From the IMG/VR virus record IMGVR_UViG_2563366989_000001: a stretch of 37,433 nucleotides of DNA. One strand, 5' to 3'. Both the position numbers and the translations under genes were made by a program. Below are positions 18,630-37,433 of the stretch, piece after piece (positions within the stretch are counted from its first letter, which is position 1; every line of letters starts with the position of its first letter). This DNA comes from a virus (Duplodnaviria > Heunggongvirae > Uroviricota > Caudoviricetes). The notes under the pieces were generated by a model. The model was not told where the DNA came from. It saw only the letters and a list, made by a program, of their open reading frames with translations, and searched no databases.

Positions 18630-18732
18630 TGTTGGCTCCGTTTATCCGTTAAAAGGGATATCAGTTAAGTTATCCCGTGTAGGGTATAAGCCATTATCAA
18701 AGCCACTCTGTAGGGAATGGCTTTTGTAATGG

Positions 18733-18759
18733 CAATAAAAAGCCCCGCGAATGCGAGGC
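18733..18759 (-). terminator. Intrinsic terminator downstream of Rz
   Basis: Minus-strand RNA GCCUCGC-AUUC-GCGGGGC (one U-G pair) followed by UUUUU. Confidence 0.55.
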
Positions 18760-18933
18760 TAAATCCTGGTATTTGTAATGACTGGCTCTTATCTCAACGC
18801 AGCCCCTTACCGCGCGCAAGATGCTCAATATCAAGCATCAGCAATGAGATGTTTAATCTGGATTCACTCCAGAAGTGATCACCATCCTGTCTACAGAGCC
18901 AGATGTGAAGGATGATGAGTAAAATTATCGCTA

Positions 18934-20181: not shown

Positions 20182-20306
20182 GTCTTACCCCCAATAAGGG
20201 GATTTGCTCTATTTAATTAGGAATAAGATCGATTACTGATAGAACAAATCCAGGCTACTGTGTTTAGTAATCAGATTTGTTCGTGACCGATATGCACGGG
20301 CAAAAC

Positions 20307-20336
20307 GGCATGAGGTTGCGCTAACAACCTCATGCC
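20307..20336 (-). other. Strong hairpin (11-bp stem, 8-nt loop) between the tRNA genes and S; candidate terminator or RNA-processing structure
   Basis: ggcatgaggtt-gcgctaac-aacctcatgcc perfect inverted repeat; on the minus strand followed by GUUUUG. Confidence 0.4.
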
Positions 20337-20423
20337 ACCCGCTTTCACGAAGGTCATGTGTAGAAGGCCGCAGCATAACTATCACTGATGAATTCAGGAT
20401 AGCCAGTGGCTACGGCTCAGTTA

Positions 20424-25411: not shown

Positions 25412-26229
25412 GTAATCCCCCTGTCTGCAAACTTCCCTTCCCGAACTCCCGTTAACGAGTCTTCCCTCAGCAGGTAATCAAAATCAGCCGTCCAGCCCGT
25501 GTCGTTGTCTCCGAAGTAAAACGGCTTGGCCTGATGCACAAACGCCCTGACATACGCTCTGAAACCGTCCACGTTTGGCGTTTTCAGTTGCGGGATGATT
25601 TTCTTCAGGCGGCGTTTGCGTTTCTCGTTGACCGCAACAGCGTGTGGCAGTCTGTCACCGACTTCGGTGTTGTAGGCGTTCAGGAAGGATTCGTAGTCGA
25701 TTCGTTCTGCCTTGCGACGTTCAGGTTTAACCTGCCCATCGCCACCCCCGTTAGGGGGTAAGGGGGTATTTGTATTTATTGTCTTTTGTATATTGTCTTT
25801 TGTGTTTAGCTGACTTGGCTTATACCCATTAGCCGACTTGGCTAATGTTTTATTAGCTGTTTTAGCTAATGTTAAGCTGTCCTGGCTAATCCACTGAGAA
25901 ACCACCTTGTTCACTCCGATTTTCACGCCATCAGCAATGAGGAATTTACGCTCGATAAGCTGGCGCTTGGCAGCGCAAACATGAGTGTGATGAATACCTG
26001 TCATGGCTGCTATCTGCGTGTTTGTGAGTCGATCCATCGGCTTATTGAATCCGTATGTCTTGCGCATGATAGCGAGCATCACCTTCAACTGCCGGACGGT
26101 TAAATCAGCCATCAGCAGACTGTCGGTAATCTCGTTAGCAACGCGCATGAAACCATCTTCGGTATCTGCCACGCGATGCTCCACGACCTCAAGTTGAGGC
26201 CTGTAATCAGCTAACTTAACGACGCCCAT
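25408..26229 (-). CDS. Replication initiator (lambda O-like N-terminal domain)
   Basis: [37 protein letters not shown] resembles lambda O N-terminus; iterons lie inside the gene. Confidence 0.85.
25768..25889. repeat. Origin of replication: four phased iterons plus an AT-rich tract, inside the initiator gene
   Basis: ttagctgacttggct / ttagccgacttggct / ttagctgttttagct / taagctgtcctggct at roughly 21-23 bp spacing (25806-25889); AT-rich 25768-25805 with duplicated attgtcttttgt. Confidence 0.7.
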
Positions 26230-26377
26230 GTTTCACTCCTGCTTTGGCTAGTCTGTAAACACCAACAAGGCGCTCTGCGAACGCCCTGTTATTTGCTGCG
26301 GCTACCACTAATCCCTCAGGTGAATCAGGGTGTCGAATCTCTTCTTTTTCCTGGTATTTCTTACGACGTTTTGTCAT
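26216..26377 (-). CDS. Possible small basic protein (53 aa) between cII and the initiator gene
   Basis: ATG 26377 with AGGAG 5-6 nt upstream; MTKRRKKYQEKEE...; end overlaps the initiator start; below the ORF-track length cut-off. Confidence 0.3.
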   Translation of the reverse strand: MTKRRKKYQEKEEIRHPDSPEGLVVAAANNRAFAERLVGVYRLAKAGVKHGRR

Positions 26378-26409
26378 AATTACTCCTGTGGATTGATCCA
26401 GTAATTCCC

Positions 26410-26706
26410 TCAGAATTGCATATCAATTTGCTTAAAATCCTCGGTGGCGGCCGGGGATTTTTTCTTTGTGATTTCATCAAGCGCATACTTAAAAGCCCTG
26501 CTAATCGGACTGATGTCTGATGCCATTCCGAAAGCACACAACACCGAAGCAATAAATCTCCAGTCCGTTCTGCTTATCTTCGATTCATGACAGCCAATCA
26601 TCTTTGCCAGACCGCGCTGGGTAAGCGTTGACAGGTTGATGAGTAAATCAGTTTCAGCGCGATCAACGTCACGCTGTGATAGTTTGCTGTAACTTGTTCT
26701 TTCCAT
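26410..26706 (-). CDS. cII: cII-like lysogeny activator
   Basis: GCHESKISRTDWRFI...KKKSPAATEDFKQIDMQF parallels lambda CII (HTH and C-terminal KKRPAATE...Q.EF). Confidence 0.75.
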   Translation of the reverse strand: MERTSYSKLSQRDVDRAETDLLINLSTLTQRGLAKMIGCHESKISRTDWRFIASVLCAFGMASDISPISRAFKYALDEITKKKSPAATEDFKQIDMQF

Positions 26707-26822
26707 TTCTTAAGATTTCCAATAGTGAATAGTTAGTTGAAAGGTATGCGTGGAAACGCATATGGCCTTAGTTGGTCAGATATATTGGGACTCGCTTTTC
26801 AGCGACGTAGGACGAATGTCCG

Positions 26823-26837
26823 TTGTTACAAAGAGCG
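26823..26837 (-). promoter_or_regulatory. Candidate nutR boxA
   Basis: Minus-strand CGCTCTTTGTAACAA 11 nt after the cro stop, followed by a short hairpin (ggac-attc-gtcc). Confidence 0.45.
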
Positions 26838-26847
26838 GATCCGCTTA

Positions 26848-27063
26848 TTAAGCAGCTTTGTGTTCCGGCGGGAACACGTCATCAAGACTGACTTTTGCGC
26901 CTAACTTGTTTAGGCACTCAACAAGAGCACGGCATGTTTTAAGGTCTGGGAAGCGACGACCAGATTCCCAATGTCCGATAGCTCCCTGTGTGCATCCAAC
27001 TGCCTTAGCAAGTGTTGTTTGAGAGATATTCAGTGACTCTCGATATTTTCGTAGGTTGCTCAT
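26848..27063 (-). CDS. cro: Cro-like repressor
   Basis: 71 aa from ATG 27063 (GGAGG 4 nt upstream); HTH ISQTTLAKAVGCTQGAIGHWESGRR; the longer listed ORF is an upstream extension. Confidence 0.8.
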   Translation of the reverse strand: MSNLRKYRESLNISQTTLAKAVGCTQGAIGHWESGRRFPDLKTCRALVECLNKLGAKVSLDDVFPPEHKAA

Positions 27064-27089
27064 ATGCCCTCCATAGTAATCACAATGCA

Positions 27090-27118
27090 ATAATACGATA
27101 TGTACTTTTAGAATGCAA
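27090..27118 (-). promoter_or_regulatory. pR promoter for cro
   Basis: Minus-strand TTGCAT-17 bp-TATTAT about 27 bp upstream of the cro ATG. Confidence 0.6.
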
Positions 27119-27166
27119 ACAAAAAAATACATCTTGTGCATGGATGATTTTAGTACAGAGCGTAAT
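27092..27166. promoter_or_regulatory. Candidate OR operator region (two related 15-mers)
   Basis: aatacgatatgtact (27092-27106, overlapping pR -10) and agtacagagcgtaat (27152-27166) share the AGTACA...CGTA.T pattern with a site at pL. Confidence 0.4.
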
Positions 27167-27175
27167 AATAAGGGT

Positions 27176-27835
27176 ATGAAAATGAAATGGTATGAACTGG
27201 CTAGATCCAGAATGAAAGAGCTCGGCATAACTCAAGAGAAGTTAGCTGAAGAGCTTGGTATGACGCAGGGTGGAATTGGTCACTGGTTGCGCGGATCTCG
27301 TCATCCATCTCTTGACGAGATTGGTGTGGTGTTTAAATACCTTGGTATTGATAACGTCTCATTCAACCACGACGGTACATTTTCACCTGTTGGCGAATAC
27401 TCATCTGCCCCCGTTAAAAAACAATATGAGTACCCTGTTTTTTCTCATGTTCAGGCCGGGATGTTCTCGCCTGAGCTTAGAACCTTTACCAAAGGTGATG
27501 CGGAGAGATGGGTCAGCACAACCAAAAAAGCCAGTGATTGTGCGTTTTGGCTTGAAGTTGAAGGTAATTCCATGACCGCGCCAACAGGATCCAAGCCAAG
27601 CTTTCCTGACGGGATGTTAATTCTCGTTGACCCTGAGCAGGCTGTTGAGCCAGGTGATTTCTGCATAGCCAGACTTGGTGGTGACGAGTTTACCTTCAAG
27701 AAACTGATCAGGGATAGCGGTCAGGTGTTCCTACAACCACTAAACCCGCAATATCCAATGATTCCATGCAATGATAGCTGTTCCGTAGTAGGGAAAGTTA
27801 TCGCCAGCCAGTGGCCTGAAGAGACATTTAGTTAA
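27176..27835 (+). CDS. cI: Immunity repressor cI: distinct N-terminal HTH domain fused to a lambda-cI-type C-terminal dimerisation/autocleavage domain
   Basis: C-terminal ~125 aa ([34 protein letters not shown]...[11 protein letters not shown]) almost identical to lambda cI as recalled; N-terminal HTH differs; start at ATG 27176 or 27182 (ATG 27113 lies in the pR -35). Confidence 0.85.
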
Positions 27836-27857
27836 CAGCCTCACCACTCTAAAACAC

Positions 27858-27887
27858 ACAACAATAACCCGACCTTAGCGTCGGGTT
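27858..27887 (+). terminator. Intrinsic terminator after cI
   Basis: acccgac-cttagc-gtcgggt hairpin followed by ttttcttttt. Confidence 0.7.
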
Positions 27888-27961
27888 TTCTTTTTCCAAA
27901 ATATAAATCAATAAAATACAAAGTGTTATAAAAAACTAAACCATATTTAGAACATTTTGTA

Positions 27962-27990
27962 TTGACTCAGTAAAGTACACATCGTACTAT
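27962..27990 (+). promoter_or_regulatory. pL promoter with overlapping operator-like palindrome
   Basis: TTGACT-17 bp-TACTAT; agtacacatcgtact (27974-27988) overlaps the -10 and resembles the OR 15-mers. Confidence 0.55.
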
Positions 27991-28036
27991 TTAGCCATCA
28001 GCAGGAAGCTGGAAGCCAAACGGAACAGACTGGCAG

Positions 28037-28064
28037 GCTCTTTAAACAACGTCGAACACTCGAC
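28037..28064 (+). promoter_or_regulatory. Candidate nutL (boxA plus adjacent hairpin)
   Basis: GCTCTTTAAACAA (boxA-like) followed by gtcga-acac-tcgac hairpin, in the N leader. Confidence 0.45.
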
Positions 28065-28107
28065 TACGTGGCTGAAAAGCCAGATCACCCAACCACATAA
28101 GCTGTGG

Positions 28108-28155
28108 GATGCAATGCCGAAGCAACTCTCTCAGGAGTAGCTTCGGGATTGCATC
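28108..28155 (+). other. Large leader hairpin upstream of the N-like gene (candidate RNase III/translation-control structure)
   Basis: 16-nt arms gatgcaatgccgaagc / gcttcgggattgcatc (one mismatch), 16-nt loop; ends 15 nt before the N SD. Confidence 0.5.
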
Positions 28156-28180
28156 GCCAGAGTTTATTCGGGAGGAATCC

Positions 28181-28453
28181 ATGTCCAGAAAAACAGAATT
28201 TAAAGGAACCGCAGCTTCTCGCCGTAGAGATCGTCGCGCAAATCTGCAAAGTCAGGAGGCGATCAGCTCCGACAAGCTACACAGGCCAACCCCTTCACGA
28301 GTGGTCTTGCAATGCAAGCGCAAACCAGCAATGAGAGCAGAAGTGATAACTCTGACAACGTTGACCAGAAAATATGAAGGTTCAACTTGTCTTCCGAACG
28401 TAGCTATTTACGCGGCAGGCTACCGGAAATCAAAACAACTGACGGCGAGGTAA
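28181..28453 (+). CDS. N-like transcription antiterminator (P22 gene 24 type)
   Basis: Arg-rich motif ASRRRDRRANLQ near the N-terminus; C-terminus AIYAAGYRKSKQLTAR resembles P22 gp24; ATG 28181 with GGAGG upstream. Confidence 0.75.
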   Translation: MSRKTEFKGTAASRRRDRRANLQSQEAISSDKLHRPTPSRVVLQCKRKPAMRAEVITLTTLTRKYEGSTCLPNVAIYAAGYRKSKQLTAR

Positions 28454-28455
28454 TT

Positions 28456-28818
28456 ATGGGTCAGGAAGAAAAATATGAGCTTAAAAAGCTCATTGAAGAA
28501 GACGCCATAGAAGAAATTGCAGCATTAACAACAGCTATAAAGAATATTAGGTATGCGCTAAATACGCTTATCTCCTCATGCGACAAAAATAGCAGGGAAT
28601 TTTTGATACTTGGCGCAGCTCTAGGAATAGTTGATGCGGCAACGCTTCACCTAATTACTCATGACGATATTCTTATTGAGCCGTATGAAACATTACTGCT
28701 TGTCAGGCAAAAAATGGCTGATGCCGCAGCAAATGGAGACCTTCAACTTTACATCGACTTAAGGAAAGTATTAAGGCGAATGGTCAGAACTGAAGGAGAT
28801 ATCCCCCTGACAAAGTAA
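28456..28818 (+). CDS. Hypothetical early-left protein (ral/gene-17 position)
   Basis: 120 aa from ATG 28456 with GAGG upstream, directly after the N-like gene. Confidence 0.5.
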   Translation: MGQEEKYELKKLIEEDAIEEIAALTTAIKNIRYALNTLISSCDKNSREFLILGAALGIVDAATLHLITHDDILIEPYETLLLVRQKMADAAANGDLQLYIDLRKVLRRMVRTEGDIPLTK

Positions 28819-28848
28819 GGGGGTGAAGAGGCTATTTCAGGAATAAAA

Positions 28849-29343
28849 TTAATAATTTGTCAGCGGCGGTACATATACAGGCTTAGGGTCTGGCGCTCTA
28901 TACATCCGGTATTCATTCTTACAGCGAGGACATGAATGCACAAAGAACCCATTAGATTTTATAGTAACCGTGCTTGGTTGAAGTATCGATATTTTATGTT
29001 CGCCGAAGCAATGTGCACAAAGGTTATGCTGCTGAATAGAAGGATCGGAATGACTCTTAGGTCTATACACGGCAGAACCACCTTCAGTTGTATGAAGTTC
29101 ATAATTCTCAGCTTGCACAACAAACATCTTGATTTTTCTATTTTCATCTCGAAGCTTCATTGCGATCTCCTTCTCGGCCTGATAAAGGCCAGAGAGCTCC
29201 GCATTAAGCATCTGTAAATCAGTTATTCTTTGGTGTAGATCTCCAATAGCTTTAGCGATAACCGCATCGTCTCTGGTTTCTTTTATTGTCTTCAGCAGAT
29301 CATAAGCCTGTTTCGCGGCAGTTATACCAGATAACACATCCAT
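28849..29343 (-). CDS. Antisense-oriented hypothetical protein: N-terminal coiled coil plus C-terminal Cys4 zinc-ribbon
   Basis: 164-aa ORF, ATG at 29343; CAHC...CPRC motif; opposite strand to the whole pL operon; direct repeats upstream. Confidence 0.6.
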   Translation of the reverse strand: MDVLSGITAAKQAYDLLKTIKETRDDAVIAKAIGDLHQRITDLQMLNAELSGLYQAEKEIAMKLRDENRKIKMFVVQAENYELHTTEGGSAVYRPKSHSDPSIQQHNLCAHCFGEHKISILQPSTVTIKSNGFFVHSCPRCKNEYRMYRAPDPKPVYVPPLTNY

Positions 29344-29482
29344 ATAAATTACTCTCTTACTGTAGGGGTGAGAGGATTTTACTATTTTTCTCGCTGTAGG
29401 GGTACACGAGAACCACCGAGCCTGATGTGGTTAAAAGACAGGCACAATCTTTACTACCGCAATCCACTATTTAAGGTGATAT

Positions 29483-29569
29483 ATGGAAGAAGAATTTGAA
29501 GAGTTCGAAGAGCATCCTCAGGATGTGATGGAACAATACCAGGACTATCCGTATGACTACGACTATTGA
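29483..29569 (+). CDS. Possible very acidic 28-aa peptide
   Basis: ATG 29483 with AGGTG 5 nt upstream; MEEEFEEFEEHPQDVMEQYQDYPYDYDY; too short for the ORF track. Confidence 0.3.
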   Translation: MEEEFEEFEEHPQDVMEQYQDYPYDYDY

Positions 29570-29753: not shown

Positions 29754-29935
29754 TAGTGGCCTTTATTTTTGGCATAAATAACAGAATAAACACTGCACTG
29801 TGTATTCATTCCAACGAGTGAATACACGGAGCAATGTCGCTCGTAACTAAACAGGAGCCGACTTGTTCTGATTATTGGAAATCTTCTTTGCCATCCAATG
29901 TGAGGGCGATTTTTTATCTATGAGGATATGAATAG

Positions 29936-31896: not shown

Positions 31897-31919
31897 TTTA
31901 GAAAAATAAGGATTCCATT

Positions 31920-32213
31920 ATGCCAGCGCCTCTGTATGGTGCGGATGACGCGCGCCGCTGTTCCGGCAATTCCGTATCGGAGGTGCTGGATAAATTCAGA
32001 AAAAACTACGACCTGATAATGTCGCTACCGCAGGAAACGAAAGAGGAAAAGGAATTTCGCCACTGTATATGGCTTGCAGAGAAAGAAGAACGCGAGCGAA
32101 TTTACCAGACATCAATCCGACCATTCCGCAAAGCCACATATACCCACTTCCCTGAAATTGACCAGCGCCTGCGTAATTACCGCTCACGCTATGGCGCTAT
32201 CAGTAATGACTGA
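31920..32213 (+). CDS. Hypothetical protein
   Basis: 97-aa ORF, ATG 31920 with AGGA upstream. Confidence 0.5.
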
Positions 32214-36128: not shown

Positions 36129-37433
36129 ATGGCTAAGACAGCATACCCAACAGGCGTTGAGAACCATGGCGGATCACTCCGCATATGGTTCATGTATAAA
36201 GGCACACGAGTGCGGGAAAGTCTCGGTGTGCCGGATACACCAAAAAACAGGAAAATAGCTGGCGAGCTACGAGCATCTGTTTGTTTTTCCATTAAGACGG
36301 GTAATTTCGACTATGCCGCTCAGTTTCCGGACTCTCCCAACCTGAGAAAATTTGGTGCGGAAAGTAAGGAAATTACCGTCGCAGACCTGGCTGAGAAATG
36401 GCTGGATCTGAAAAAGCTGGAAATCAGTACCAATGCGATGGGGCGTTACAGCTCCATTGTAAGAAATATGGTTCCCCGAATCGGAGGCAACAGACTTGCA
36501 TCTGCTGTGACTCAGGAAGAGCTACTGTTCATACGAAAGGATTTGCTGACCGGATATCACGTTCTGAAACGCGGGCAAAAAACACCCATTAAGGGACGTT
36601 CCGTGCCAACTGTTAATAACTACATGAACACCATGGCGGGGATGTTTCAGTTCGCAGCCGACAGCGGATACATCAAAGAAAATCCGTTCGCAGCCATTTC
36701 GCAACTGAAGAGATCACGAACGGAACCTGATCCGTTAACCCGTGATGAATTTGTCAGGTTGATTAACGCATTTAAGCATCAGCAATTAAAAAATATGTGG
36801 TCACTGGCTGTTTATACGGGAGTTCGCCACGGAGAGTTGGTTTCTCTGGCATGGGAAGATATAGACCTGAAGGCTGGGACAATGACGATCAGAAGAAACC
36901 ACACATTAACGAAAGAGTTCACTCTTCCAAAAACCGAAGCGGGAACAAACCGTGTTATCAACCTTATTCAACCTGCAATAGACGTGCTTAAGAATCAGGC
37001 TGAAATGACACGGCTTGGTAAGCAGTATCAGGTTGAAGTGAAACTTCGTGAGTATGGTCGAACTGAAATGCATCCGTGCACTTTTGTTTTCAATCCGCAA
37101 ATCGTTACGCGTAATGGCCTTGCCGGGCACCATTATGCAGTTGGGTCGATTAATCAGTCATGGGAAACTGCAATGCGACGCGCCGGGATTCGCTACCGCA
37201 AAGCATATCAGTCCAGGCACACTTATGCATGTTGGTCTTTGACCGCTGGAGCTAACCCTAACTTCATCGCGAAGCAAATGGGACACTCTGATGCTCAGAT
37301 GGTTTATCGCGTTTACGGATCGTGGATGGCAGAAAACAATCAGGATCAGGTATCCATTTTAAACCAGAAATTGAGTGAGTTTGCCCCATCCATGCCCCAC
37401 GCTGTGGAATCGGATGTAATTAAACAAGTATAG
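36129..37433 (+). CDS. int: Tyrosine-family integrase
   Basis: 434 aa; catalytic signature TGVRHGEL, SRHTYACW and GHSD...VYRVY (R, H-x-x-R, Y); stop codon is the last triplet of the window. Confidence 0.9.
   Translation: MAKTAYPTGVENHGGSLRIWFMYKGTRVRESLGVPDTPKNRKIAGELRASVCFSIKTGNFDYAAQFPDSPNLRKFGAESKEITVADLAEKWLDLKKLEISTNAMGRYSSIVRNMVPRIGGNRLASAVTQEELLFIRKDLLTGYHVLKRGQKTPIKGRSVPTVNNYMNTMAGMFQFAADSGYIKENPFAAISQLKRSRTEPDPLTRDEFVRLINAFKHQQLKNMWSLAVYTGVRHGELVSLAWEDIDLKAGTMTIRRNHTLTKEFTLPKTEAGTNRVINLIQPAIDVLKNQAEMTRLGKQYQVEVKLREYGRTEMHPCTFVFNPQIVTRNGLAGHHYAVGSINQSWETAMRRAGIRYRKAYQSRHTYACWSLTAGANPNFIAKQMGHSDAQMVYRVYGSWMAENNQDQVSILNQKLSEFAPSMPHAVESDVIKQV

Follow-up and report, generated by a model that had tools for sequence, protein, structure and literature searches.

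Which of the hairpins at the two nut sites of a lambdoid prophage is the one read by its N protein, and what is the large hairpin that separates nutL from the N gene? These questions are raised by a 37,433-nt stretch of DNA from a virus of the class Caudoviricetes (IMG/VR record IMGVR_UViG_2563366989_000001), the whole of which is referred to here as the window. A preliminary description of the window had pointed to boxA-like elements and hairpins around cro and upstream of N. Here, we set these elements beside their counterparts in other phages and weigh the possible readings of each.

The immunity region and its two nut sites

The region is very probably the promoter-proximal part of the pL transcript of a lambdoid prophage, carrying nutL, with a nutR twin after cro. 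Pfam models recognise N, cI, Cro and CII in a lambda-like order (Table 1), and the immunity region is inverted relative to the lambda map, with cro and cII on the minus strand and cI and N on the plus strand. The pL-type promoter has the sequence that is annotated as 'putative major leftward promoter' in the VT2-Sakai record; transcription probably starts at A27997 (ATCAGCAGGA...), and the 5' end of the leader, AUCAGCAGGA(A/C)GC, is common to the window, lambda, P22 and H-19B. The N protein carries the arginine-rich motif GTAASRRRDRRANLQSQEA and has a C-terminus like that of P22 and H-19B (...YAAGYRKSKQLTAR). It is 97.8% identical to N of YYZ-2008, of the Stx1-converting phage and of phage 2851, and N of VT2-Sakai belongs to the same class.

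Within the motif, codon 17 of N (28229-28231) encodes Asp (RRRDRRANLQ), most close relatives having Ala at this position (RRRARRANLQ) and lambda, P22 and H-19B a Glu. The 120-aa ORF that follows N (28456-28818) gives no match in Pfam. Downstream of both, a 164-aa ORF on the minus strand (28849-29343) lies within the rightward pL operon and is possibly an inserted, independently expressed gene.

Table 1. Features of the immunity region, the nut sites and the N leader in the window.
Feature	Position	Strand	Description
cII	26410-26706	-	Pfam Phage_CII
nutR boxB (UCGCU-GAAA-AGCGA)	26792-26805	-	loop and closing U-A as in nutL
nutR spacer hairpin (GGAC-AUUC-GUCC)	26810-26821	-	identical in H-19B and HK97 nutR
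nutR boxA (CGCUCUUUGUAACAA)	26823-26837	-	10 nt past cro stop codon; pattern match
cro	26848-27063	-	Pfam HTH_3
cI	27176-27835	+	Pfam Peptidase_S24 and HTH
cI terminator	27866-27887	+	terminator scan; sole plus-strand call
pL-type promoter	27962-27990	+	TTGACT, 17-nt spacer, TACTAT; consensus scan
nutL boxA (GCUCUUUAAACAA)	28037-28049	+	1 of 2 pattern matches in the window
nutL spacer hairpin, H-19B 'reducer' type (GUCGA-ACAC-UCGAC)	28051-28064	+	pair probability 0.87-1.0
nutL boxB (UGGCU-GAAA-AGCCA)	28069-28082	+	5-bp stem closed by U-A, GNRA tetraloop
Predicted outer helix extension	28089-28175	+	partition function, pair probabilities 0.80-0.87
Large N-leader hairpin	28097-28167	+	30 bp in 71 nt, -44.8 kcal/mol
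N antiterminator gene	28181-28453	+	90 aa; Pfam PF25694 N_peptide, E = 7.9e-32

That boxA-like sequences stand at both of the positions expected of nut sites, as had been described earlier, is borne out by pattern counts and placement. The pattern GCTCTTTN{2,4}ACAA has exactly two matches in the 37.4 kb, for about 0.15 expected by chance: one at 28037-28049 (+), ahead of N in the pL leader, the other at 26823-26836 (-), just after the cro stop codon, on the pR transcript between cro and cII. Both copies fit the consensus (C/U)GCUCUU(U)A..., and the nutL copy is kept in all 27 leader variants of the window's class. A 20-nt composite motif, CTACGTNGCTGAAAAGCNAG, likewise occurs only at nutL and nutR in the window, with 0 occurrences expected by chance. 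Each boxA is followed by two hairpins separated by a TACG that both sites have in common, the layout being GCUCUUUAAACAA-C-(GUCGA ACAC UCGAC)-UACG-(UGGCU GAAA AGCCA) at nutL and CGCUCUUUGUAACAA-C-(GGAC AUUC GUCC)-UACG-(UCGCU GAAA AGCGA) at nutR. The preliminary description was right that a short hairpin follows boxA, but it counted one per site where there are two.

Downstream of the nutR boxB, the cro-cII spacer contains a further conserved hairpin (AUAUGCG-UUUCCA-CGCAUA, at 26740-26791 on the minus strand), which is common to H-19B, HK97 and 75/02 Stx. At the matching position of VT1-Sakai, just downstream of nutR, a tR1-type Rho-dependent terminator is annotated.

Assigning boxB at the nut sites

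The architecture of the window's nut sites, boxA-ACAA(C/U), hairpin, UACG and boxB, is also that of the nut sites of H-19B, 933W and HK97. The nutR site of H-19B has two hairpins, and N is bound at the loop of its boxB (PMC3526286, footprints of the Sen laboratory). Its sequence (AF034975), ...ACAAU-(GGAC AUUC GUCC)-UACG-(UCGCU GACAA AGCGA), equals nutR of the window in the spacer hairpin, the UACG and the boxB stem and differs from it in boxA and in one base of the loop, H-19B having a GACAA pentaloop and the window a GAAA tetraloop. The N proteins of the two phages also differ, both in length (127 aa in H-19B against 90 aa in the window, with 42% identity) and in the arginine-rich motif (GNSRSRRRERLKAKALANG in H-19B), while sharing an HRPT(L/P)SR segment and the C-terminal end that binds RNA polymerase.

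In a set of 45 distinct nut sequences, drawn from phages in GenBank and contigs in IMG/VR, the hairpin adjoining boxA has stems of four unrelated kinds (GUCGA/UCGAC, GAUUC/GAAUC, GGAC/GUCC and GGUGA/UCACC) and free loops of 3-6 nt, with more than 15 sequences. In the same set, the 5-bp stem of the second hairpin occurs in seven variants, all of them paired and with compensatory changes at three positions, and its loop is only ever GAAA, GCAA or GACAA. Among the relatives of the window, the stem of the nutL spacer hairpin is invariant and its loop variable (CUC, ACUC, AUC or GCAC); within the window, the nutR and nutL stems of the second hairpin are related by a compensatory change from G-C to C-G.

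The link between the second hairpin and the N protein was followed in IMG/VR, which was scanned for the nutR context with an unconstrained loop of 4-5 nt, and the linked N gene and nutL were then recovered. In all of the approximately 40 loci with a GAAA or GCAA tetraloop in nutR, N carries one of at least eight sequence variants of the motif G[ST][AS][AS]xRRRxxRAxLQ, and nutL has a tetraloop as well. In each of the 32 loci with GACAA in nutR, the same loop recurs in nutL and N has the H-19B motif GNSRSRRRERLKAKALANG. Loop type and N motif are thus never mixed in about 72 loci, which are not phylogenetically independent, though the link nonetheless recurs in several separate lineages. Further, the Salmonella phages g341c and sal5 have near-identical leaders that differ just in the N motif and the boxB loop, a pair that amounts to a natural swap of these two elements. 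Since its loop type tracks the N motif, the second hairpin is, on this comparative evidence, the boxB.

In sal5, the nutL boxB, about 130 nt upstream of N, looks degenerate (GCUC-CGUCAAC-GAGC, with a 4-bp stem and a 7-nt loop) and may be decaying or altered; the nutR site of the same phage keeps GACAA, closed there by a U.G pair. In HK140, the leader from the nutL boxA to N is much longer and organised differently, with an additional small ORF in the annotation; the boxB of this phage (CCCGCCGAAAUGCGGG type) is also that of mEpX2.

Two other readings of the nut sites have to be weighed against this assignment. One of them, that the boxA matches and the hairpins arose by chance in an AT-rich intergenic stretch, has practically no probability left. 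The 7-mer GCTCTTT alone would be expected a few times in 75 kb of two-strand sequence, but matches to the extended patterns are confined to the two positions at which nut sites belong (0.15 and 0.00 expected by chance), and more than 100 loci conserve the features with covariation. Counts and covariation together refute a chance origin. The other, which is probably what the preliminary description meant, takes the hairpin adjoining boxA for a boxB with a new type of loop that is read by N. This hairpin does take the slot after boxA in which lambda and P22 have their boxB, and it folds with high probability. However, its loop is ACAC at nutL and AUUC at nutR within one phage, it takes each of the four forms given above in phages whose N arginine-rich motifs are identical or near-identical, and its nutR version is the same in phages with differing N motifs (H-19B and the window), the motif being tracked by the second hairpin instead. 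Because the loop differs between nutL and nutR and varies among near-identical relatives, the first hairpin is not a common N-binding site, and with the comparative data contradicting it on both loop variation and motif tracking we regard it as extremely unlikely to be boxB.

The hairpin adjoining boxA is an H-19B-type spacer hairpin, and not boxB. Neely and Friedman are said to have given it the name 'reducer' in 2000, and their compensatory mutations reportedly indicated that its structure, and not its sequence, matters. In the window the spacer hairpin probably acts in the same way, in that it would have no sequence-specific role and would fold away about 14 nt, bringing boxA and boxB close together.

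With the second hairpin as boxB, the earlier remark that the loop differs from that of lambda and P22 needs correcting. The GAAA loop is one base shorter, being the GACAA of P22 and H-19B minus the C and equally the GAAAA of lambda minus one A, and so shares their GNRA type rather than being unrelated to them. The boxB elements of lambda and P22 resemble that of the window in their 5-bp stem and GNRA-type loop fold, and lambda has the same closing C-U...A-G; their loops (GAAAA or GAAGA in lambda, GACAA in P22) are pentaloops that push out one base, the looped-out base of P22 being the C (PMC12550061), whereas the window has a plain tetraloop. The nut sites of lambda and P22 are also without a spacer hairpin, unlike those of the window. 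In the arginine-rich motif, N of the window (SRRRDRRANLQSQE) and N of lambda (TRRRERRAEKQAQW) are identical at 8 of 15 residues, and the window has Glu at the position of lambda Trp18.

We consider it somewhat probable that the window represents a natural N/boxB specificity class defined by a boxB loop that is a plain GNRA tetraloop, GAAA or GCAA, from which no base is extruded, and by a lambda-like N motif without the Trp, the residue that in lambda stacks on the loop. The perfect pairing of loop and motif suggests that this class does not cross-react with the GACAA/H-19B class. The papers searched contained no biochemical study of a class with a GNRA-tetraloop boxB and a Trp-less N. If the class is real, its complex would assemble without needing the looped-out base that lambda uses, and it could be put to use as a further peptide-RNA pair for tethering; that boxB loop and N motif go together so cleanly in nature is a minor point of wider interest.

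In the window, the arginine-rich N-terminus of N would bind boxB at its GAAA tetraloop while the RNA is emerging, and N together with NusA, possibly with NusB/S10 on the near-consensus boxA, would allow RNA polymerase to read through terminators; we infer such binding and antitermination at the window's nut sites. In the equilibrium fold (partition function), boxA is paired with other sequence, which may or may not matter during transcription. The nutL boxA of H-19B is degenerate, whereas both copies in the window are near consensus. In H-19B, boxA was reportedly found dispensable by Neely and Friedman in 2000, and because of this the role of a good boxA here is uncertain. The requirement for NusB/S10 and boxA may differ from that of H-19B.

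The large hairpin of the N leader

Just upstream of the N Shine-Dalgarno sequence, a hairpin with 16-bp arms had been noted earlier. The hairpin is real, but it is about twice as long, a 30-bp helix that reaches the Shine-Dalgarno sequence; the 16-nt arms (28108-28123 and 28140-28155, with one G.G mismatch) form its middle. Its apical loop is CUCA, and the helix is interrupted by three 1x1 internal loops and one bulged G; an inverted-repeat search with a seed of 9 missed it, the arms being broken by mismatches. The proposed RNA folding confirmed its strength: the leader folds at -78 kcal/mol (z = -7.4 against dinucleotide shuffles), and the segment 28091-28180, at -47.8 kcal/mol against a mean of -19.4 (sd 5.75), is the most stable of 7470 sliding 90-nt segments covering both strands in an MFE scan. 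In the predicted outer extension, C28089, C28090, C28093 and C28094 pair with G28175, G28174, G28171 and G28170 of the Shine-Dalgarno sequence GGGAGG. A double-stranded structure of two helical turns or more is thus present between nutL and the Shine-Dalgarno sequence of N.

Elsewhere in the window, the next most stable folds, at -39 to -42 kcal/mol per 90 nt, are found at 18671-18760 (-), 36151-36250 (+), 31911-32000 (+) and 20271-20370 (-), and an inverted repeat with 22-nt arms lies at 29790-29837.

The leader follows one plan in lambda, P22, SEN22, VT1-Sakai (whose N is annotated as similar to phi21 N), H-19B, HK97, sal5, g341c, mEpX2, Lambda_2E9 and several IMG/VR phages: the AUCAGCAGGA(A/C)GC 5' end is followed by boxA, boxB and a structured cassette, which ends 18-24 nt before the AUG and is closed by ..(N)CUUUGG.. 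paired with ..CCAAAG(N)... The interiors of the cassette fall into 14 sequence-unrelated clusters of 33-131 nt, every one of which folds; where z was computed, it ranges from -2.2 to -6.4. The closing helix of the window (AUAAGCU-G-UGG with CCA-G-AGUUUAU) aligns base for base with those of H-19B and lambda; in lambda ..CUUUGG.. pairs with ..CCAAAG.., in the window AAGCUGUGG with CCAGAGUUU, and the distance from helix to AUG is similar in both (18-24 nt). Over 19 leader types, this 11-bp helix is 92.8% paired, a percentage that is biased by the picking of its 5' strands via MFE pairing, and four of its pairs are changed on both sides (for example from A-U to G-C). Pairing drops to 28-59% when the register is slid, and the covariation score is 0.392 against 0.209 in shuffles, none of 500 reaching the observed value. 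By these comparisons the closing helix is homologous to the leader helices of lambda, P22, the phi21-like VT1-Sakai and H-19B, with covariation.

At closer range, all three hairpins are kept in phages with the same N, and the preliminary description, which would have fallen had such conservation been lacking, is not refuted on this point. Among the 27 leader variants of the window's class, changes in the large hairpin are limited to transitions that preserve pairing (A-U to G-U) and a few singleton disruptions. These variants have diverged little and contain no double compensatory change, so that their agreement could simply stem from a recent shared ancestor. The apical third of the hairpin pairs better in the window than in most relatives.

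Since its closing helix is homologous and covarying, the large hairpin is the positional, and in part the sequence, homologue of the RNase III-processed structure in the N leader of lambda. The lambda RNase III site occupies the same slot, from nutL to the N Shine-Dalgarno sequence (Steege 1987; Kameyama 1991; Wilson 1997, 2002), and the resemblance to it that had been suggested earlier is supported by position and by the homology of the closing helix. Above this helix the two differ, the lambda structure being branched and about 110 nt long and that of the window a single, nearly perfect hairpin. In lambda, RNase III processes the N leader, and through this leader N bound at NutL acts as a repressor of its own translation (Steege 1987; Wilson 1997, 2002, as cited in PMC5371410 and PMC5725501). 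In the window, the 30-bp hairpin takes up nearly the whole interval from nutL to the ribosome-binding site of N and is predicted to pair in part with that site. By analogy with lambda, it would keep the N complex bound at nutL close enough to repress N translation and would partly mask the Shine-Dalgarno sequence, and a cut by RNase III would detach nutL, open the ribosome-binding site and raise N synthesis. From the same analogy we infer RNase III cleavage and translational control of N in the window's leader. Literature searches found no paper on RNase III cutting of the N leader in this phage class.

Instead of being cut, the large hairpin might be mere structural filler or an mRNA stabiliser that RNase III leaves intact in this phage. 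Its effect may then be to compact the leader, allowing the complex at nutL to reach the ribosome-binding site. Between classes, the sequence of the upper cassette is not conserved and its span ranges from 33 to 131 nt, which suggests that bulk structure alone is at work. Cleavage by E. coli RNase III needs roughly two helical turns, however, and the nearly continuous 30-bp helix exceeds this. PMC5725501 states that the leader structure of lambda may make the RNA loop compact, in line with a filler, but the homologous structure in lambda is cleaved, according to references cited in PMC5725501 and PMC5371410; on balance an uncut filler is unlikely, though it deserves to be kept in mind. Far less probable still is that the hairpin is a terminator or attenuator before N, or the precursor of a small regulatory RNA. 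Its great stability and a weak Rfam match to a microRNA precursor model speak for these roles, but the stem is without a following U-run, the terminator scan gives no call there, and a terminator upstream of N would block the very gene that is needed to overcome terminators. We rejected a terminator on the absence of U-run and scan call, and a small-RNA precursor on its Rfam score, 19.5 bits against a gathering score of 90 (E = 3.2), which reflects hairpin shape alone. In a permissive Rfam scan of 26000-29500, covering both nut sites and the N leader, no family reached threshold, the best matches having 18-23 bits and E of at least 1.5 against thresholds of 40-114 bits.

Distribution and significance

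The nut sites and the N leader of the window are already known as elements of the H-19B/VT2-Sakai type, from a well-sampled phage group. The region from promoter to N is 92-95% identical to VT2-Sakai, the Stx1-converting phage, YYZ-2008, Nil2, 2G7b and others, and used as a query it matches 161 phage records, 58 of them over at least 80% of its length. In the VT2-Sakai record, 'putative N-utilization leftward' and 'rightward' sites are annotated over the same sequence, and the g341c record has the same nutR boxB annotated.

The closest comparison is with VT2-Sakai (Sp5), which has the same order of elements and a leader with 96% column-by-column identity in the alignment from pL to N. Its group (GenBank AP000422, AP005153, YYZ-2008 and Nil2) has nutL and nutR sites of the same type as the window, and the large hairpin stands without annotation in these records. 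VT2-Sakai differs from the window in the spacer loop (CUC against ACAC) and in the N motif (A against D); in its group the top of the large hairpin pairs less well than in the window, which also has a shorter cI neighbourhood.

Of 5426 complete E. coli genomes, 763 (about 1 in 7) contain the leader segment 28030-28185 at 90-100% identity. A profile search of genome contigs with the N alignment gave 11 loci, several of them on contigs that appear contaminated or misbinned. Short contigs in GTDB representative assemblies of Segatella copri (metagenome-assembled genomes; L089 and L092) and Xanthomonas pisi (L090), both non-enterobacterial species, carry an E. coli-phage N, one of which is 98% identical to N of the window; this is probably contamination or misbinning.

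The results matter mainly for correct annotation, in that the hairpin adjoining boxA is not to be labelled as boxB in a very common type of prophage that includes Shiga-toxin phages. Further, the strong candidate RNase III site in the N leader could link N synthesis, prophage induction and toxin expression to the physiology of the host.
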